A stretch of 64,000 nt of DNA, taken from assembly GCA_964106645.2 (NCBI GenBank), contig OZ067049.1. The stretch is one strand, 5' to 3'. Source of the DNA: Podarcis pityusensis. Lineage: Eukaryota. Made by a program: the position numbers and the translations under genes. Below are positions 1 through 57,426 of this stretch, in pieces; the stretch's first letter is position 1, and the number at the start of each line of letters is the position of its first letter. Under the pieces are notes generated by a model that worked only from the letters and a program-made list of their open reading frames with translations, was not told the DNA's origin and did not search any database.

Positions 1-2699
1 ATGGTTAATCATTTTGCTGCTTGTTTGAGCTAAAATCTCTACTGCAAAATTGGTAGAAGTGTAAAATCCAAGGTGTAATTATGCTCTGACCCATGTATCA
101 GTCCAGAACAGGGCTGGTGACCCTCAGGTTCAAGGACCAACATACAGTCATTCAAGCTTATCTGGTCCTTGGGCATAGCTCTCCCTGCCCCTGCTTCACA
201 TTCTTCTTGAGTGTTTTTGCCTGGCTGAAATGTGTCCTTGACCTGTGATGATGCATCTTCTTCCCTGGATGGAGGGGGATCTTTCAATAAGTGTAGAAAC
301 TAGGCAACTGTACAAATTCCCTCTGGGAATTTCTGAAACTGCCTGTTGTCTTCCCCAAACACACCTGGGATTAAGAGAGAGTCTTAAGAGGTGTGTAGTG
401 ACTACACAATTTGCCTTGCACTGGTATCAGTAGCATTTGGAAGCATCTCAATCTGTTCTGGATCTGCTCTGTATTTGAATTTGATTTGTTATTCAAGTCC
501 AAACCTGGTACGTTACATCTGAAACTCTGTTTTGCCCTCATCAATCTAATTGGGAATCTAAAAAATGGCTGCACCTTTTCTTTCTTTTCACATACATGGG
601 CGAAACTTGCATGCTAAGGATTTCCCTCCAGAGTGGATTAAGCCTACCGAATTTCAGGCAGTTACATCCAGGTAGAGAACATTTAAGGATTGCGATTATA
701 ATCATGTTGATGACAATTACCCATCTTGCATCGTATGGTCCGAGGGCAGCTTAGAACAATTTAAAAGACATGATTCAAACAGAATTAAAACAAACGGCAG
801 TCACAAGAAAAGAGCGAGTCCTAAATACATACACCTGAGGGGTCAAAGGTGAGGGTAAAGAGAGGTGTCTTCACATGCCACAACTGAGGGGCTGCCACCC
901 CATAACTTCTGAGAATGGTGGAACTACCAAGGGGCCCCCCTATGCTGAGCTTAACATCCAAGCATCTAAATTTCTTCTTTTCTGCCATAACTGCTGGCAA
1001 ATTGTAAGTGTAGCTTCCCCTTCTGAAGGAATGGAGCATGCTAAAAGAAAGGTGTACACATTCTCTCAGACTTTACCATTTGGGGAAGGGAAAATAGAAA
1101 TAACTTTCATTCCCTCAGTTTTATTTTTTTCTGGGGGTGAGTGAAATTAGCATAAGAACTGGCAAACTAAGGAAGAAACAGCAGGGTAAGAATCCTGCCA
1201 AAGCTCACATACATAGAATGAAGGACTATCATGCTAGATGAATTTACCTTAGCTATAGTGAACAAAAGAAAACTCTCAGGTTTTTTCCTTGCTGCTCTCC
1301 CTTCCTGGAGATACCCTCTGCGAATAATAAGAAAAAGAGAGTGCTATTATTTAAAATATTTTCTGAGGGGAAAAAAGAATGAATGGGAAAGAAGGAGACC
1401 GCCCTAATTATTTAATTCCCCTGCTTACTCCCTGGTCTCACAGCCTAACTTTGGAGGGAAATGAGAACTCGTGTTTACAACACCCCTTTCCCAAATCACT
1501 GTGACTGGAGCGCCCTGGGAAAAGAATTCACTGTGATTAAAAGCTAGTCCTGTCCATAAAAACAAACTATTCCCTCCAACTTCTCTACCTTTGCCGTCTC
1601 TAGGTTTTTCACCCCAGACAGCTTGGTTTTTTGTTTCTCAGATGAAAGAAGGAAGGGGATGGTGCAGAACAACCAAGTCTGGCCATAGAGTTTGCAGCAA
1701 ACAATGAGAAGCTGGACTTACTATTAAATGAAGTGTGCATTTGAACCTCCAAAGAAGCTGATCTTAAGGCCTCACATAGCTTCACAGCAATCAATGATCA
1801 TTAAGTATTTTTTTGTACATCTTTGTCTGCAGAGCTGTGGTTGTGACACTGACACATAGGACATTTAATATTTTGAGCTGAAGTAGAATGTTCGGGGACA
1901 GTGCTGCTTGATTTGTAATACAGCTCTATGTTACACACGGGATACATTTGTATTCTGTAACATGAACACCACAAATTCACAGCATCTAAATATTTATCAG
2001 TGAAAGCATGGAAGTGCTCCTCTCTACAGGTACGCTCATCACAGAAATGCCCCATAATCTCTTCCTTTATTTGTTTAAACAGCAAGAGAGCCAAAAAGCA
2101 CTCAGAAATAACAAAAGCAATGTTTTATGTTTCCTAGGGAAAACAATTGTTCCAGTGTAAACCAGATCCATTTATATCTGTGCACAGGAGATTGATACAC
2201 AGCATTGGATATTAAGAATTAAGCTTGTGTGTGAGACAGAATGAAATATATTGCTTATATATCAGCCAGTGGATTGGGGTGTTTAGAGGAGCTGAAAACA
2301 AGGCAGCTTTTAGTATGATCAGTCACAGTATGTGCCACTCACAATTAAGGTTCACACAATATTCCCTCTAAGCCCATCCATGTGCATGTCCATGTCGTAA
2401 TGAATGGAAATTGAACTGGATGAGACCCATTAGGTTCATTTTTGGAGCACACACACAAGGCAATATTATTTAAACGATCAAAATTTACAGATACAAAATG
2501 AAAGTCGTGAGCAATGAATGAGTGTGAATGGAGTCGCCTTCGTTAACCACTCAGTATTTTTAAATATTTGCAAAGTGATGACTGCATGGCTGTTGCATCA
2601 TTTATTGCAAATCATTTTGAAAGAAGTCAGTAGGCGCCTATCACACACTGGTAACCATTTTCCACACCGTAATCACAACAGCATGAATTTCTGGGGAAT

Positions 2700-3460
2700 C
2701 ATTATTCTTATTCTTATTGCCTTCCACACAAGGTGCTCATAAAAACAGCGAAAAGCAGTTAAAAAATGCAAAAAATCAATAAATATGTTTGAAAAACAAA
2801 ACAATAACAATACAGTCTAGAAGAGACACCCATGGCAGAGACCCAGTCATCCAGTTAAGAAAACCTGTCAGATCAAAAATGTCTTCAATTTGTTTCAGAA
2901 AGTGCAGGTAGTGGGAACTTGTCAAGTTATGATATAGGGTTTATTATTGTTTATATTATTGATTATATTTTCAATTAGATATATATGGAGGCACCAAAAT
3001 CTTTTAAATGCTTAGAGCCTATAAAGGTCTTAATATGGTCCTGGTTCCACAGAGCAAGGGCAGCCACACTGAAATCTCTGCTCTGAGTTCCTGCGGAGTG
3101 GGCTTCTGATATTTTTGGAGCTTGCAGAAGAAACTGTCCCACAGTGTTCTATAAGCATATAAGGGACAAGGTGGTCTCACAAGTAACTTGGTCCTGAGCG
3201 GTATATGGCCTCATATGTTAGCATCAAGATCTTGAACTTGATCTGGTAGCAGATTGGTGGACAGAGCAGATTCTGCAAGGAAGGTGCCTGTAGTTTGCTG
3301 CCTGCAAGCATGGTGCACCAGTTGCAGTCTCCATACCAACCTCAAAGGCAGCCCCACATAGAGCACATTGCAGTAATATGAACATCAGGTTACCAATGCA
3401 TGGGCAACTGTGGTCAAGCTATCTTGATCCAGGAATAACCATAGTTGTCCTATCAGGAGG
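2700..3460 (-). mobile_element. L2 LINE 3' fragment (degenerate)
   Basis: Minus strand near 3330-3455 reads DQDSLTTVAHALVT*CSYYCNVLYVGLPLRLVWRLQL, the L2 'HALVTSRLDYCN.LY.GLP' motif. Confidence 0.8.
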
Positions 3461-4720
3461 AGTCAGGGGCAAGATCAACAGGTGCAATTCATTTTCCCCC
3501 TATGGGTGTCCAGACGAATGTCTGAACACTTCAACAACATGTCAGGAAAATGCACATGCTGACAAGAACCAGGATTGGCTAGGCTCCTTGCCTCAGGTAA
3601 AAAAACAACATCAGCAGCAACAACACATGGTGGGGAAAAATCCACTTCAACTACAAGAACACATGATAGAATTAAGCAGGACCTGTGTTGAGTCTCTTAT
3701 TTGTTAAATGACTCACATATTCTCACAGAAAAGTTAGCTTTTTGAAATCACAAGAGACTCACAAAAAGGTTGGAACAACCTCTTGGGATTTCTGTAAAAG
3801 TGCCACTATTCTAGTAAGTGATTGGATGCACATTAGAATGACAGAATGCTTATATTTTGGAACTTTTTAATAAACTTGGTGGGCTGGGGGTTGATGGGAG
3901 AGAATTTTTGTATTTTGTATTGCAAACGTTTGTAACTTTTGTATCCTCTCCTTTGAGAAAGGATCATGAGAGCAACTTTCGAAATATTCTAATGTAGCAA
4001 TAGAGCCACATAGTTGTTCTCACATCTCCTGTTTCCAGAAACACTGTCCTATGAATACAATGACACTGGCAACATGGGGCTATAGCTTCGGGCTGGCTGT
4101 CATGCCATCCTCTCCCATTGTGATAAATGGTGTGCCCGTTAGTTTTCTAAATGAACAGTTGTTGTCCCACAGATTATTTCAGCAACATGCATGCCCAGAT
4201 ACTGTGGGTGAACCCTGAAACAAACAATGCTACAGAAGTACATGAAATTATGGAAATCAAATACTATGAAAGCATGTGACTAAACAGGTTTTGGGAACAG
4301 TGGTTTTTCTTCCCTTCTTTCTTCTGCAGAAGATGATGGCAGGAAGAAATAAGAGAAGATAAGTGAGGTCGACAAGTTGAGGGAGAGAAAGTATATAGAT
4401 CAACCCATTAAAATTCAAAGCCTAAGCATACACATCAGTTACCAATTAAAATCAAAGTTCTGATGTTGATGAGAAATATCTGCTAGTCTTTCAACTGTCT
4501 TATATCCTGTCCAAGTGGCAAAGGAAATAAAAGCCTCAGAGAAGACTAATGGGGCCTCCCATCTTCCATCTTCCAAATGAATAAATTAGTGAATTTTGCA
4601 TTGGGTACACAACCCCAATGTGGAAAGTTCATTTAGGGGAACAAGATTTGCTGGACCATCAAACACAGTGCCCTGCAGTTGCAGGCACAATTTGTTATTA
4701 CAGAAACAAGTTGACTAGAC

Positions 4721-7100: not shown

Positions 7101-7301
7101 CAAGGCTGGCTCAACCAAGAGGCAAGATGAAATGACTGCTTCAGGCAGCAGGATCCACCGGGGCACAAGAACCCAATGTCAACCTTTCTTTCTCCCCTTG
7201 TTCCTGGTGTAGCTCTTTTCTCACCCCTTCTTCCCTGGTGGGTAGGAGTACACCAATTTGGGGGTCTGCCTCAGGCAGCAAAATGTCTTGGGCCAGTCCT
7301 G
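7101..7301. mobile_element. hAT-like MITE (old)
   Basis: CAAGGCTGGCTCAA / TTGGGCCAGTCCTG termini, imperfect TSD CATCCACC / CATCTACT. Confidence 0.6.
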
Positions 7302-7494
7302 CATCTACTCACAATCCCGGACCTGCTTCTTGGAGGGAGCAAATGGGGCAACTCCATCAAGAACAGATGAAATTCCAGTTTCTGGGTCAGCTACACTCCC
7401 CACAGTGACTTGGTCTTCAGTTTTATTTTGTACTTCATGAGATGCAAGAATGGAAACATTGTCTTGGTTAATTAGACAGAAGAACACAATGGAA

Positions 7495-7678
7495 TGCAGG
7501 AAGCTGCCTTATTCTGAGTCAGACCATTGATCCATCTAGCTCAGTATTGTCCACACTAATTGGCTGTGACTTTCCATGAATTCAGGCAGGGTACAGCCCT
7601 GTAGATGCCAGAGTTTGAACCTCGGACCTTCTGCACACAAAGCAGATTCTCTGCCTCTAAGTTATGGCTTCTTCCCCT
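7495..7678 (-). mobile_element. Squam3-like SINE
   Basis: Reverse-complement match to 4721-4912. Confidence 0.7.
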
Positions 7679-9061
7679 ATTGGACCCAGAGTTGCTGAAC
7701 AGGGTGTTTGGAGAGAAAATAGATTGACTTTATTGTTGACACAAGCTATTTCACAGTTGGCTTACGTAAGCAAAGCTCTAAAGGGGATGGCAATGTTTTC
7801 CTCTTTGAAAGACTTCCATAACCTTTAAGACAGCAGAATGTCTTCTTCCTAAACCACACTTATCTTCCCAGCTATGCACTTTTAAGTACGGCGTGCAGCC
7901 TTTTCATCATCATTTAAGAAGAAGCAAAACATATTATTTAATAATTCTACCCCACTTCTCTCTAAAGTCTTAAATGATGGTTATGGGCATAAATACTTCA
8001 TAATGGGAAGTTATGACTAAAGCCATAAATGAATACCTCCTGCTTTGCCCTGAGAAAGAAAGACAATAAAATGGCTTTTAGAAGTCTAAACTTTTAATGG
8101 CATTTTACTTGTGAAACAAAAGAAACCCTGGTTATATATTCCAGAGAGAGTCTCATTCTAATGACTTCTAATCTCTTTATAAAGCCTTTTTCTATAGCGG
8201 TGTAATTTGCATAATTGTTACCCTATGTAGAATAAAAGATTGTGCTACCTGCTGAGTTCTTTGCTCTCCAATGAGTGCAAGCAATGAGCTACCATGCACA
8301 TTCAGAACAGTTGAGAGGTACAGCCCTGTTGGGGATGCCACCACTGCTTGGTGAGATGGTGAGGAGTTGAATGCAGAAATCAGGGACACACCACCAAAAT
8401 TTCTTTGACCATGACTCCCACCAGGCCCAGGTAGCAGGGCTAAATGCCATGAATGACGGGAGTTGTTGCAATCCAACAACATCTGGAGACCACCATATGA
8501 GCTACCCCTAGAATAAATTATCTCATGAAGGGAGGTTTCATGAGATGTATTCACCACACAATCCTTCGTATGAATGAGCATTGTAGCTCATGATTACTCT
8601 GAACATGTAGATCAGGGCTGGATCTAGACACATCAAAAAAGCGTTTCAGGAAAATGCATTGTAAACTTCATAATGGGAAATCACATTAGCGAAAGACGGG
8701 GCTCCACAGCACCATCTGGTGCCAGTGTCATAACGCATATAAAACACTTTTTCTTTTCTAATACAGCCGAGTCCCAGGTCTTAATCCTTACTCAGGGCTA
8801 GATTGTCAGCTATAACTTTTTGGTCCTTGTTGAGTTGGATTTTTCCAGGTTTGAGCCTGGGTGCGATGCCACCTTTGTAGGCCATAATTTTGAAGCTCGA
8901 TTTGTAAGAACCCCAGTTTTTAACAGTTGTCTCGGGGTTAGTTTAAAGGCCTTTTCAGATCCTCCTCACATTAGTGCTTAAGTAGCACCAAAGAAAACTA
9001 ACCCAGCTGCAGTAGTGCAATATTTTGATGGTAGCAATGGATTCACATTGAACTCAGAGCT

Positions 9062-9243
9062 TTAGGAACCTAGGAAGCTGTCTTATTCCAAATCGGACAT
9101 GACCCATCTAGTTGAAGGTTGTTGACACTGCCTTTCCATGGTTTCAGACAGGAATCTTTACCAGCCTGACTTGGAGATATGGGGAATTGAAGCTGGAAAC
9201 TTCGACATGCAAAATGTGTGCTGTATCATGAGACTGTGGGCCA
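9062..9243 (-). mobile_element. Squam3-like SINE (degenerate)
   Basis: Similar to 7495-7678. Confidence 0.6.
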
Positions 9244-10516
9244 GCCATGAAAAAGATTGGAGTGATGGTGATACAAAGGACTCTAGTAATTTAGGTTGCA
9301 ATCCTATACTCACACTTGCCGGGGGCTTACTTCTGAGTAGACCAAAACAGGATCATGCTGCAACATAAAAAACCATCCAAAACCCTCTCCCACATCGCTT
9401 CTTACCCCACTGTTCTCCAGACCAGTCTTGTACAAACAAAACAAAATAAAGATCTGCTATTTTACTACCAAAGGAGTAAAATCTGTTCCAATTCAATTAT
9501 AGCACTTACATCAATGATTGCCAATACAGGAAACTGTAGTCTTAGACTAAATAAATGTCATGCTATTTGACTTATTCAATTACACAAATACAGCTACCAA
9601 GTTCAAATTGACAGTTACCTTGTATGGTTTACAGTTTTAATGAAATAACAGTTTGGTAAAAATTTCAGGACATATGAAATGTGAAATATATGTGTTCACA
9701 GCAGGCACCTGACTGGTTCTTCCTGTATAAGGCTCATTAAAAAAACATTGAAAGCAAAGCAAATCTAGAAGAGGCAGCTTTCAGGAGAAGCATCAGGTAG
9801 TATTGTGCTGGCCATATATTTTCCAAGAACTGCACAAATGACTCCCCATGCTTTTGAGAAGGATTCAACATCCTTTTGTTTTATATCTGTGTACCATGAA
9901 GCAGATGTTCAGGCAAGCCATAAATTTCAAGGCAAGAGTATGCCAGGATAGGCTGGATGACTGGCTCATTGGGATCCACAGCATCCTTTCAAAATTAAAT
10001 ATTTCCACATCACCCAGCAAGCTAAATCAGAAACTTCCAGTTCACAATGTTAGCCACAACAGCACATTATACCAGCTCTAAAATTTCATTTTTGTTAGGA
10101 GATACCAGAAAATGTTCCAATTATGTATTGGCTATTCAGGAGCGCTAGTTCTAGATCATTTGTTTCCAAACTCCTCGCCCCTGCCCAAGAACCACTGGAA
10201 ATTCCTGCAGGTCTTGGCCAATCACTTGATTTCTCTACCTGCTGTAGCAACTGCGCTGTGCTGGATGCTGTAATTATTATTAAATTGTATTTTTATGGCT
10301 TCTTTTATTTCTTATATATTGTCTTATTTTTTACTGTATTATAATTTGAATTCCATTGATTTAGACAGTCAGTTAGGAAAGTGTTGTGCGGCCCAGGTTT
10401 TTGAGGAATACTGCCATTTGCTTATGTTAACTGGGTTGCTTTGGTTGCTGTTATAATTAAAAGAAAAAGAAGTTAGTTGCCTTGTGGCTCCATTGTATTG
10501 GCTGGCAGGCTAAATA

Positions 10517-34910: not shown

Positions 34911-35950
34911 CATAAATATACTATTGAACATAACATACAAAAATGCATTGTTTTAGGGGAAACGGCTTTGTGAAAATGTATATAATAGGCAGAGATTTGC
35001 TGGTGAATTTTCAAGAGGATGTTTTTCTGGAAAAAAATCACAAACTGACGTAGAAATTTGGAGAACTGTACTGAAGAGTGTAAAGACTGAGAGAAACCAA
35101 AACTGACAGATTTGGCCATCCCTTGTGTAGCTCATCTCTTCCCCCACCACACAACTGGAATTACATGAATATAGACACCTGTTTCAGGATTACAGCCACA
35201 ATGAACCTCTGGTACCTGTGTTCTCTAGTAGCCAAGAAACAAAGGGACTGTGATGGCTAACTTAGCTAGAATTTCTGTGCCAGGAGAGATGACCGATTTA
35301 CAAAACAAATCCGGAAATCCCAGGAATCCAGTCCCTGGAGCTGATGGCATTGCCTGAAGAAGCACAAATACACACCTACTTTTCCCCACAGTGGGAGCTG
35401 ACCTGCCTTTGTTCTGTGTTTATTTCTCCTCCAGGGCTTCCCACCTGGTGTGCTGACTGCCTCAAGCCCAGGCGAAGGAACCTGTGTGGATCCCACCTCT
35501 GCTTTTATTGGCCTGGTACTGGGGGATCTGGTTCAGTAGCCTCATGCCTACCAGTCTCAGGGGCCCATGAGCAAGGCTCAAAGTCAGGAACCTAGTCCGG
35601 CTCCTCAGCCAATGGCTCTGTAGCGTCTGTGTTCTGGTCACTGCTGAACTCCAGGGTTATGATATTTCCTCACTTCCCCCAAAGGCGGGTGTTTCAGAAT
35701 GTGAGGAACTTGGCTCCTCTGAGCAGAGGCATTGCTACGTACTTGAAAGATCCAAGGTCTAGATCCAGAGACACAGATTTTTATGTGCTAATTTATGTGC
35801 ACACATGCAAATTTAGTGTCAGGCTTCATGGAATCTGATGCCTCCCCTGCTGGCAGCCAGTAAGTAGACAAACAAGGAGTTCTTACCAAGCAATTTATTC
35901 CATAGATCACAGAGAGAGACGAAGGAATGCAGCCTCCCTGAAATAATGGT

Positions 35951-36159
35951 TCCAGTTACAGATAGGTAGCCGTGTTGGTCTGCCATAGTCAAAATAAAAA
36001 AAAATCCTTCCAGTAGCACCTTTAAGACCAACTAAGTTAGTTCTTGGTATGAGCTTTCGTGTGCAAGGTATCTGAAGAAGTGTGCTTGCACACGAAAGCT
36101 CATACCAAGAACTAACTTAGTTGGTCTTAAAGGTGCTACTGGAAGGATTTTTTTTATTT
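35951..36159. mobile_element. Penelope-like element terminal fragment with inverted-repeat structure
   Basis: ~78-bp near-perfect inverted repeat (35989-36067 / 36085-36162), hammerhead motif, 12-bp flanking direct repeat TGAAATAATGGT (35939-35950 / 36160-36171). Confidence 0.8.
36067..36106 (+). ncRNA. Minimal type I hammerhead ribozyme motif (Penelope-type)
   Basis: GGTAT-CTGAAGA-A-GTGTG(CTTG)CACAC-GAAAGCTC-ATACC. Stem I is GGTAT/ATACC, with the CUGANGA and GAAA core boxes, a 5-bp stem II and palindromic AGCT in place of helix III. Predicted cleavage after C36101. Confidence 0.8.
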
Positions 36160-37680
36160 TGAAATAATGGTGTTGATCTGAATGAAGTGCAATCCCCTCC
36201 ATCCCTCCTATTCTACATCACCATTATGATGGCTTATCTGAGCTTTCTGCCTCTGAGCCTTCTGTTCTCCCACCTTTAATGCTCGCCTGGTCTTGGGGAG
36301 TGGGTGCAGAATGCTCTCCAAAGACACTGAGCACTGAGTCTGTTAGTTGTCTCTCTCTTGGTGTTTCTTCTTCCTGCTGCTCCTCTCCTAATATTTCTCA
36401 GCTTCTCCCCTCTTCAGCCTCTGAACTACAACCTTCTGCAAACCACTGTTCTAAATCTGTACTGTCCTTATGTTCTCGGGAAGGTTCAGGAGAAGGGGGG
36501 GCAGCCCCCACCATTCCTCCTCAGTCCAGCTCCTGACATTTAGAAATGATGACCAGGATTTGCATTTCACAGAAGGTAAACCAACTTTCTTCCCCAACCG
36601 CCCCCCTCATAAACATTTCAATTCATTTTCACTCCAGTACAGATTACCCAAAATCAGTTCAATTCATTTACCTACCCAGAAACATTTCATCTTCAGTAAC
36701 CCCATCCATCCATCATCACCCACCCTAAATTTAATTAAAGTGGATTGAAAAATAACAAGGGTGCACATTGCGCTTGAATTTAACTAGTTCTTGTCCTCAT
36801 CTCCCCCATTCAGACATTCGCATCAAGATGCAGAGGTTAGCCTTGGCATCCTTTTAATAGGTGCTAATTGCCACCATCAGAGCTGCTGAAAAACACTTGT
36901 ACAAAAAGAAATTAGAGTGTTGTCAGTTTGGAGAGATTAATGGAGATATATTTTCCATTCACCCCAGCTATTACTATGGCAGCAACGCAGGCAAAGCACT
37001 CAAGAGAAGCTTAGAGGTTTTCATGTAACAGCACAGATTTCTTTGCTTCTAGCAGCCTGAACACTTATTTTTGTGGCAGTTGTTCTGTAAGCAAAGAGAA
37101 ACAGCTTTCAGAGCCTTTTACCACCTGACCTCCACGGAGCTCCCAACAAGACAAAACAAAAACAGAGATACTGTATATGTCCTAACACTACCTGTATGGA
37201 ATCTTCCCATTGCAGGGGTGAGGAACTTTTTTCAGCCTGACGGACCACAAGCCCGTGGAAGACGGGGCCAGAGGCAAAAGTCAGTGGCATCAATAATGTT
37301 ACCTTTCTACAATAGGCTGGTTTCTACACAAACCAACACACACTTCTCCATCCAATATTCAAGTTAGCAAAAGGCATGATCCGAGTTCAAGGCAAATTCC
37401 AGCCAGGCGAAAACACTCAAGGAAGTTGCGAATCAGAACTGATGAAGGATTTGGTCTGGGGAGTGTGTAACAAGCCAGGCAGAGAGGCTTGGAAGGCATT
37501 TCATCCATGTATTAAAGGCAGTAAACAAACAAAAAAGAGTCTGGTGGTTAACATTGAGATTGGTTTATTTGTTGCTTCATTGGTCTGCAACTTCATGAAT
37601 GAGGAGCAAAACTAATACAAAAGTCAAGAACCCTTGGCTCACAGCTTCCTGCACCCTGATAGTGGGGGCATCCATACATT

Positions 37681-38066
37681 AAAAAGGTAAAGGTAAAGGA
37701 CCCCTGGACGGTCAAGTCCAGCCAAAGTTGACTATGGGGTTGCGGCACACATCTCGCTTTCAGGCCAACGGAGCCGGCGTTTGTCCACAGTCAGCTTTCC
37801 GGGTCATGTGGCCAGCATGACTAAACTGCTTCTGGCACAATGGAACACCATGACGGAAACCAGAGCGCATGGAAACTCTGTTTAGCTTCCCACCACAGCA
37901 GTACCTATTTATCTACTTGCACTGGCATGCTTTCAAACTGCTAGGTTGGCAGGAGCTGGGACAGAGCAACGGGAGCTCACCCCATCGCGGGGATTCGAAC
38001 TGCCGATCTTCTGATTGGCAAGCCCAAGAGGCTCAGTGGTTTAGACCACAGCGCCACCTATGTCCC
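37681..38066 (-). mobile_element. Full-length Sauria SINE
   Basis: (AAAGGT)n tail, GGATTCGAAC B box on the minus strand, imperfect TSD CATCC(A/C)TACAT. Confidence 0.9.
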
Positions 38067-38251
38067 TACATCCCTACATGAATCTCAGTGATGGAGGCAC
38101 AGCCATTGGGTCTCAGCCTTCCACACCTGAAAGGCATTTCACCTGAGATTATAGACTTGATTGTACTAGCGGCCACCAAAAGGTGAGTTCTTCATTCACA
38201 GGCACTATTGCCAACTCCTAATGAGAGACACTCAGGGGACATCCTTTGGAA

Positions 38252-38700
38252 AATGTAAGAGTCTGCTGGATCAGGCCAATGGCCCACCTAGTTTAGCATC
38301 CTGTTCTCACAGTGGCTAACCAGATGCCTGTGGGAAACCTGCAAGCAGGACCTGAGTGCAAGAACACTCTGTCCACCTGAGGTTACCAGCAACTGGTATT
38401 CAGAGACCAGAGCACACAGAAACGCCATTTACCTTCCCACTGCAGCAGTACCTATTTATCTACTTGCACTGGTATGCATTCAAACTGCTAGGTTGGCACA
38501 CCCCATGTTGCCTCTGACTGGACTTAACTGTCCAGGGGTCCTTTTCCTTTTCCTTTATTCAGAGACATGATGCCTCTGACAGTGGAGGCAGAACATAGCC
38601 ATCATGGCTAGTAGCCATTGACAGGTTTGTCCTCCGTAGATTTGTCTACAAGTTGCTGGCTATCACTTTCCCCTAGGAGAGCAGGTTTTATAGCTTAACT
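38252..38700 (-). mobile_element. CR1-type 3' fragment hosting an inverted Sauria SINE
   Basis: GTAAGAGTCTGCTGGATCAGGCCAATGGCCC...AGCATCCTGTTCTCACAGTGGC; the sequence resumes after the TSD at 38566. Confidence 0.65.
38408..38555. mobile_element. Sauria SINE fragment with 5' inversion and internal deletion
   Basis: 11-bp TSD TATTCAGAGAC; the first ~90 nt are antisense SINE body and the last ~57 nt are the sense 3' end plus tail. Confidence 0.85.
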
Positions 38701-50802: not shown

Positions 50803-51163
50803 TTAATAATAATAATAAGTTTTATTTATACCCTGCCCTTCCCAGCCAAGACCAGGCTCAGGGAGGCTAACACCAGGTATAAAAACAATTGATTAAAATA
50901 CAACTTAAAAATAAGATTAAAATACAACATTAAAATGCAGCCTCATTTTAGTAGAAACTCAAATCAAAAACTTTTTGGGGATGAAAACGTCAAATCTTCA
51001 CCAAGGCCAACTATCGAGACTGGTCCTACGTGGGCCAGAAAAAAGCCAGGGAAGTCCCCAAATAGGAGTTCCATCACAGAAGGAGAAAGGAAAAAGGAAA
51101 GAGGGGAAGGGGATCAAGTTGATTCCAAGCCAAAGGCCAGGTGGAACAACTCTGTCTTACAGG
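50803..51163 (-). mobile_element. L2-type LINE 3' end
   Basis: (AAT)n followed by TTTATTTATACCCTGCCCTTCCC...CTCAGGGAGGCTAACA; related to 41652-41990. Confidence 0.65.
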
Positions 51164-51181
51164 AAAGCCTCTCCTCTTCAA

Positions 51182-52135
51182 GTTGTGAGCGGGAGCCGTT
51201 TCCCGCGTTGGCAGGGGGTGTTCCGCCCCCTGCCCAGCTGCTCCGGCTGCTGTGCCACCCCCCCAGGTGGCCAGCCAATCGGCTGGAGGCTTGGGGGCAG
51301 TGTTTAGCTGCTCAAACGCGGCCGCGGAAGTGTTTCCCAGCCATTGTGCTGCTGCTTCTCGTCGGATCAAGACGTCGGTTTACGACCTCCAGGAAGGACC
51401 TCCTCGACCACGTGCAGGCTGAGCAAGTGTTGAGGATTTTTAGCAGCTAGTTTGCTTTAGGCTAACTGGTCTGCAGAAGATCGCCCCGTCAGCGCCGGTT
51501 GAGCCAGCAGGCTCCCGCTGCCTTGCACTGCCAACTCTGAACACCAGCTCTGAACGCAGCAACTGTTACTGAGAGCCTGAGGCAACAGCGGTGTGCAAAG
51601 CAGTGTGTGAGGTTCAGAGGCGGGGGTGTGGGTTTGGCTGGCTGTATCCCCCCCCCTTTTCTAGTTTTTTCGGGCTATGATACCCCCCCCCCCGGTCCTT
51701 TTAAAGTTTTAAAGGATCTCCCCCCCCCCCCCCGGTCCTAGGCATTGGAATATGGTTGTGTGTTGGAGGGCAGGGTGTGGCCATCGCCTACCCCTCCATT
51801 TTATGGGTATTCTGGTAAAGGAATCCGGCGGTTGTGGATCCTGTCCAACACCCTTGCTGGTGGCTAGGGCCATGGCACGACCCCCGGTGACATCAGGGGG
51901 AGCTTTCAGTTGTATTTGCATCAACAGGCTCCTCCCACTGGTGATTAACCCTTGATAGACTCACCCCTCCCTGCGGGTGTGGAGTCACACTCTGTTGTTT
52001 TATCCAATGCCTAAGCCAATACCTCTCACATGCTGTAATCAATAAAGTTGTGGCCTTTTTTAGCCCATTAACCTAATATACCGTGTCCCTGTGTCTTTCT
52101 TATCCTCAAGCGGGTGGTGGGTCGTCGAATCACAA
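51182..52135 (+). mobile_element. GC-rich LTR-like element of uncertain class
   Basis: Abrupt CpG-rich block with TTGTGA...TCACAA ends; AATAAA 52041-52046 followed by a GT-rich U5-like segment; no TSD seen. Confidence 0.5.
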
Positions 52136-57303: not shown

Positions 57304-57426
57304 ATGAAATTCCTGGCGGTTTTGACCGTGCTGTTCCTAGTCTCGGCTCAAGCATTTGCGGAAGAGCTGGGAGACAACGAGGAGCTGAATTACTGGTCGG
57401 ACTGGTCCGATGGCGACCAAAACAAG
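57304..57426 (+). CDS. TAC1: Preprotachykinin-1, first coding exon (signal peptide + acidic N-terminal propeptide); partial CDS, later exons not found in window
   Basis: Manual translation [41 protein letters not shown] (41 aa) is colinear with human TAC1 [41 protein letters not shown]. Kozak context gcgacgATGa; phase-0 donor AAG|GTGAGC at 57427. Confidence 0.95.

Follow-up and report, generated by a model that had tools for sequence, protein, structure and literature searches.

Related elements

Inverted pLTRs, tails, target-site duplications (TSDs) and solitary minimal hammerheads have already been described, in the available parts of the reports concerned (PMC4209133; PMC3846280; PMC8557442; PMC8969392; PMC6765202; bioRxiv 10.64898/2026.07.22.740005). 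In the examples of EN+ Penelope-like elements (PLEs) accessible in two of these sources (PMC3846280; PMC8557442), the parent encodes an RT with a C-terminal GIY-YIG and lies in tandems, the pLTR has a TATA box and an Inr-like motif, and insertions take the form of a head-to-head inverted 5'-truncated copy with a tail of 30-40 bp at one end and a TSD. The same is found here, with three differences: both arms of the unit described below are shorter than 125 bp and have no ORF, the modal TSD is 12 bp rather than the 8-10 bp of the rotifer PLE examples, and the occurrence of one tail per insertion, which the accessible text only notes, is counted here.

Metazoan PLEs carry minimal hammerheads, with reports from turtles and snakes among others; the available part of PMC4209133 characterizes them as type I, with a helix I of 4-5 bp, one additional base lying between 9 and 10.1 and a palindromic 15.2-16.2 region, and as mostly solitary copies from truncated PLEs. 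The present copy shares these traits and differs in having a helix II of 5 bp and in being overlapped by its own antisense arm. A further relative is the Poseidon element PAc of Anolis carolinensis, which, as far as the accessible part of PMC11167929 goes, also has two internal 3' end points bounding the tail inside the start of the ORF, and an uncleaved RNA template; the family described here, by contrast, has a Neptune-type CxxxxCxxC linker, a hammerhead upstream of the ORF start and a tail end that shows short matches to the target.

A hairpin insertion made of two PLE fragments

Within the window (the whole stretch of 64,000 nt that was analysed), an insert of 221 bases is identified by its sequence as two 5'-end (pLTR) fragments, placed head-to-head, of an active Neptune-type PLE. 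The element is numbered from the A of TCAGT (+1), the putative start site, 30 nt past the start of TATATAG. The tailed arm (35946..36067, minus strand) covers element positions +21..+141, is without the 5' half of the hammerhead and contains the element's tail at about 35946-35988; the tail-less arm (36068..36162, plus strand) covers +4..+98. The unit begins 3 nt downstream of the putative transcript start, and the parent's TATA box is absent. As an earlier note on this DNA had reported, the arms form a near-perfect inverted repeat (35989-36067 and 36085-36162, with a 17-nt spacer and 78/79 bp paired), whose halves differ by a single extra A in an A-run. The plus arm is identical to the pLTR of an intact copy of the parent (L055), and the minus arm is off by one base in a T-run. 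Folding of the whole unit gave -146 kcal/mol (z -21.5), with 0/200 shuffles equally good.

The unit was also said to be bracketed by a 12-bp TSD; the direct repeat is indeed there (35939..35950 on the left, 36160..36171 on the right) and is single at the empty site, with the correction that 35951-35988 is the element's tail. The final 5 nt of the left repeat match the element tail too, as the initial 3 nt of the right repeat match the element. An inverted 5'-truncated copy, a tail at one end and a TSD characterize EN+ PLEs, and the unit has all of these.

In our judgement the unit is probably an insertion of recent date, likely polymorphic and likely inert, in which two PLE 5'-end fragments stand head-to-head and which was likely primed from two ends on uncleaved RNA. 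The parent element, arm coordinates, TSD, empty site and copy numbers are observed, and the mechanism is read back from end products only.

The parent element

Outward extension of the unit sequence yielded 85 exact matches together with intact tandem copies carrying 910-aa ORFs, so that the link to a PLE suggested in the earlier note is borne out; in two loci (L051 and L055) the tandem units are spaced 3,010 bp and have the same hammerhead-bearing pLTR. Domain searches with the 910-aa ORF found RVT_1 above the cut-off (E 1.8e-12) and, at the C-terminus, GIY-YIG just under it (E 2.2e-4; 21.9 bits against a cut-off of 22.6), and the motifs VYGI..YIGQT (GIY-YIG) and DKG are present. The linker between RT and endonuclease reads CNKPKCQLC at residue 770 (CX4CxxC). 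A CX2-5CxxC motif at this place is shared by Neptune and Nematis in the accessible part of PMC8557442; we would class the parent as Neptune-type by this linker motif, which Nematis also has. Among named organisms, the closest matches to the protein are turtle proteins (60-69% identity), and a PDB sequence search with it returned 0 matches. Together with the types of repeat present, these turtle relatives point to a lizard as the likely host. Several intact 910-aa ORFs were found (L051, G000:C9:17784000-17793999; L055, G000:C19:29099000-29108999; and L052), two of them arranged as a perfect tandem, and in all likelihood the family remains active.

In another locus (L053) an open frame of 849 codons runs antisense to the PLE ORF at 1520-4069 and again at 7263-9812; codon bias may be what produced it.

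Abundance and age

Exact matches to the hammerhead number 7,537 in the genome, and matches with the native upstream context 3,399. The short head-to-head junction has 1,616 matches, a figure in which symmetric junctions are counted twice; given that, by hand count, 22 loci are doubly listed among the first 100 rows, we estimate about 1,250 junction loci. At least 40 places match the whole unit over its full length (40 of 1,334 candidates scored). The locus is ordinary, one of more than 1,000 similar insertions in the genome. At least two subfamilies can be told apart among the hammerhead and junction matches listed, with a stem II loop of CTTG or CATG and a cleavage base of C or T; by established rules the T variant is expected to be a poor cleavage site. 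One insertion is identical, flanks included, on a small contig (L003/L105, C334) and a chromosome (L004/L100, C5), which is likely an assembly duplicate.

The earlier note had proposed a recent insertion from the near-identity of the arms, which equal the intact parent pLTR bar one base, and the comparison of samples agrees with this. The site is empty in 3/3 DNA runs, one from a further sample under the same species label and the others from two other species labels: contigs join 35938 to 36160 with the 12-mer present once, and the depth at the joint is similar to that of unique flanks. The contig across the empty site in one run (X10) has 96% identity over 253 bases, well above paralogues; the joint in another (X7) has just 29 letters on its short side and is the weaker case. 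The insertion is therefore recent and likely polymorphic. An RNA run (X23), of which about 12% was read, carries another species label whose DNA run shows the site empty; its 1,056 reads come from other copies, with no pile-up of read starts or ends, and do not inform on a locus from which the insertion is absent there.

End pattern across copies

The analysis covered the 44 foremost clusters of hammerheads on contig 1. In a set of 40, 24 show one arm and 16 are two-armed; the remaining four are short, have two arms and bear a single tail apiece. The end pattern was analysed in 28 two-armed copies (9 young loci and 19 close minus/plus neighbour pairs, with seven older or fragmented two-armed loci left out). 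Each of the 28 combines an arm whose end falls at +124..149 with one whose end falls at +87..108, and so has a single tail; an old two-armed locus outside this set (L113, 80-85% identity) has a tail on neither arm. A TSD of 12-15 bp flanks 26/28, with 12 bp as the mode (exactly 12 in 12 copies). As for 5' reach, the tailed arm extends further in 7 copies and the tail-less arm in 8, with both within 20 nt of each other in 13; two of the long two-armed cases have internal rearrangements. The arms of one insertion are mostly closer to each other than arms of different insertions are, and their 5' ends are correlated (rho 0.71; 6/21 long pairs within 20 nt against 1.05 when permuted, P 0.0004), a correlation that may be inflated by 19/28 pairs having been chosen as close minus/plus neighbours.

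Overlap of the tail end with the TSD by at least 2 nt was seen in 29/42 copies, against 18% in a rough simulation; at the tail-less end the overlap (16/42 against 26% simulated, P 0.06) is not clearly above the null, 3 loci having been skipped in this comparison for want of an anchor. Arm starts, counted by a procedure that detects only purine-preceded junctions and includes point mutants, fall at +4 after a purine in 1,490 cases and at the hammerhead cleavage site in 16, the latter being no commoner than neighbouring control positions (19 and 26). The base before +4 is G in 73/100 first rows (hand count) against 43% expected, an excess that copying of the cap would produce.

Proposed mechanism and alternatives

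A short transcript would start about 30 nt past the pLTR TATA box, and a 12-nt staggered cut in the target would leave two DNA ends, both of which could prime reverse transcription on the uncleaved element RNA. Of the two internal start sites, the RT/endonuclease protein would use the far one to prime a tailed cDNA, here with a 5-nt match to the target end, and the near one to prime a second cDNA, without a tail and here with a 3-nt match. Both cDNAs would extend toward the RNA 5' end and their 3' ends would be joined head-to-head, in this copy after the tailed cDNA had stopped or been trimmed at +21. A copied cap is the likely origin of the additional G at the junction. Two target 3' ends that each prime a cDNA are also the basis of twin priming in L1, which gives an inversion within the TSD. 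In L1, however, the two cDNAs come from different parts of the RNA, whereas here they would come from the same part, leaving an inverted repeat.

Two cDNAs, one per target end and each from one of two start sites, would account for both orientations, the single tail and the co-terminal arms. On balance we lean toward reading the whole family as an in vivo record of PLE insertion, in which a protein dimer and a 12-nt stagger would always produce one tailed and one tail-less cDNA off the same capped, uncleaved RNA, joined head-to-head. In the available part of PMC11167929, the protein of the Anolis PLE introduces nicks in both strands and extends them, with two internal start sites that bound the tail; against the model, the same text reports that initiation proceeds without target homology and that the start sites do not differ between strands. 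The 24/40 sampled loci with a single arm and the old locus without any tail (L113) also count against it. Part of the end pattern may already be shown in Fig. S2 of that paper. An explicit two-primer PLE model was not found in the open-access literature searched.

The alternative that fares best, although we think it unlikely, accepts the same PLE debris and derives the inverted arm from fold-back self-priming of one nucleic acid, possibly on an antisense template, with endonuclease trimming of one end creating the tail. Antisense self-priming is preferred for the inverted arm in the accessible part of PMC3846280, the tail is ascribed to endonuclease-mediated resolution in that of PMC8557442, and near-identical, often co-terminal arms would suit such a process, as would the junction of the present unit, which falls in the near-palindromic stem II. 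A target-attached fold-back, however, cannot place the tail on the shorter-headed arm, which is where it is found in this copy and in 8/28 pairs, and the two end points fit the pattern of two RT start sites shown in vitro (PMC11167929, available part).

We give very little credence to the idea that the hairpin itself is a MITE-like, non-autonomous unit with a master copy as its source: the exact junction does recur at 8 places (two with common flanks, seemingly one locus assembled twice), but these are 8/1,616, with different outer ends and their own TSDs, the junctions vary continuously, up to those with arms of kilobase length, and no promoter lies inside the unit. A fixed non-autonomous unit was rejected on the variation of ends and junctions across copies.

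If true, the two-cDNA model removes the need for antisense self-priming in explaining inverted pLTRs and a tail on one side only, and the short hairpins, in their thousands, would be abortive products of PLE insertion. The locus itself is of little import. For retroelement specialists the family is of interest, since its intact ORFs and its very young copies allow rules to be counted: a single tail in each insertion, a 12-bp TSD, co-terminal arms, and starts at the promoter rather than at the ribozyme cut. These rules bear on the later steps of PLE retrotransposition and are testable in an existing in vitro system. The more than 1,000 near-perfect hairpins are also a potential genome-wide source of dsRNA.

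The hammerhead motif

The earlier note had recognized a minimal hammerhead at 36067-36106 on the plus strand, and every core residue is in place. GGTAT (36067-71), CTGAAGA (36072-78) and A 36079 form the 5' part, followed by stem II, GTGTG-CTTG-CACAC (36080-93), then GAAA (36094-97), GC, T 36100 and C 36101, after which the cut is predicted (element +37), and finally ATACC (36102-06). Compared with minimal type I hammerheads as set out in the accessible part of PMC4209133, it has the core residues, helices I and II, a palindromic helix III stub and the base between 9 and 10.1. Both stems have the 5 bp attributed to them, with the correction that in stem I the fifth pair was created by the junction: the parent has T where this copy has G36067, and the native stem I has 4 bp. 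On the minus strand the hammerhead core is missing, the sense arm there beginning at +21. The earlier note had called for a hammerhead search; in an Rfam scan none of the 9 matches at E<=5 was to a hammerhead family, and its miRNA matches, scoring below the gathering threshold, reflect the hairpin.

The 40-mer alone folds correctly (probability 0.96 for stem I and 0.99 for stem II). The addition of 7 upstream bases lowers the stem probabilities to about 0.2; with at least 17 nt of the upstream arm present that of stem II is 1.8e-12, and imposing the hammerhead fold in the presence of this arm costs 20-36 kcal/mol. When two hammerhead copies were co-folded, the MFE structure was not the helix III dimer.

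That the locus works as a masked ribozyme or dsRNA switch, perhaps acting on TAC1, seems to us highly improbable. The core is intact, the isolated 40-mer folds as it should and read-through RNA would form a 78-bp duplex, a plausible dsRNA substrate. The two-state behaviour proposed in the earlier note is nevertheless unsupported by the folding just described, the upstream arm being transcribed first and winning; moreover, there is no TATA box in the unit, and the AATAAA of the host LTR is on the minus strand, whose sense arm is without CUGAAGA. The insertion is absent from other samples, and more than 1,000 similar arrangements exist in the genome. This is the sole hammerhead copy in the window, and in the available part of PMC4209133 a single minimal hammerhead showed no cleavage and dimers had low activity; for the Anolis PLE, cleavage was seen only with protein and was dispensable for insertion (PMC11167929, available part). 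Folding predicts that the hammerhead, just a part of the pLTR, is sequestered by the upstream arm in read-through RNA, and the hairpin insertion is likely inert.

Non-LTR retrozymes are defined, in the accessible part of bioRxiv 10.64898/2026.07.22.740005, by head-to-tail tandem units with a hammerhead in each, and the unit was rejected as one of these, having a single hammerhead and head-to-head arms. Head-to-tail arrays of short hammerhead-bearing units do occur elsewhere in the genome (L054 2874-5400, L020 1596-2100 and L059, with units of about 557, 183 and 74 bp); they resemble non-LTR retrozymes derived from this PLE, and neighbouring hammerheads in them could dimerise.

Host repeat and neighbouring sequences

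The insertion lies in an older solo-LTR-like repeat (35817..36538), about 500 bp long without the insert, to which we assign the minus strand on account of AATAAA at 35899. The solo LTR named as host in the earlier note is upheld as a solo-LTR-like repeat: it has TG..CA ends, a 5-bp TTTAG duplication on either side (35812..35816 and 36539..36543) and a dispersed family of relatives of about 500 bp, 82-84% identical and uninterrupted across the insertion point. The exact 5-bp duplication is seen in the window copy and in 3/10 complete relatives, with near-matches in most others. A parent LTR element was not found by PBS pattern among the 30/58 matches examined, whose downstream sequence is unshared.

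At 37683-38556 a different dispersed repeat, resembling a squamate SINE, is present in the window as two inverted or direct-repeated pieces, with a direct match of 96 nt and an inverted one of 45 nt.

The first coding exon of TAC1 (57304..57426, plus strand; MKFLAVL...) is given for context; its ATG at 57304 is 21.1 kb from the insertion, in line with the roughly 21 kb first stated, and no relation between the two was found except distance. Pfam gave no informative family for the exon frame. Beyond it, just past the window end, lie exons with RPRPQQFYGLMGKR and HKTDSFVGLMGKR, which we take to be substance P and neurokinin A. Minus-strand frames at 50893-51450 (...VVWSKHFRGRV-like) resemble an asparagine synthetase exon, which suggests that about 6 kb ahead of TAC1, and nearer to the insertion than TAC1 is, there is a neighbouring gene in divergent orientation.
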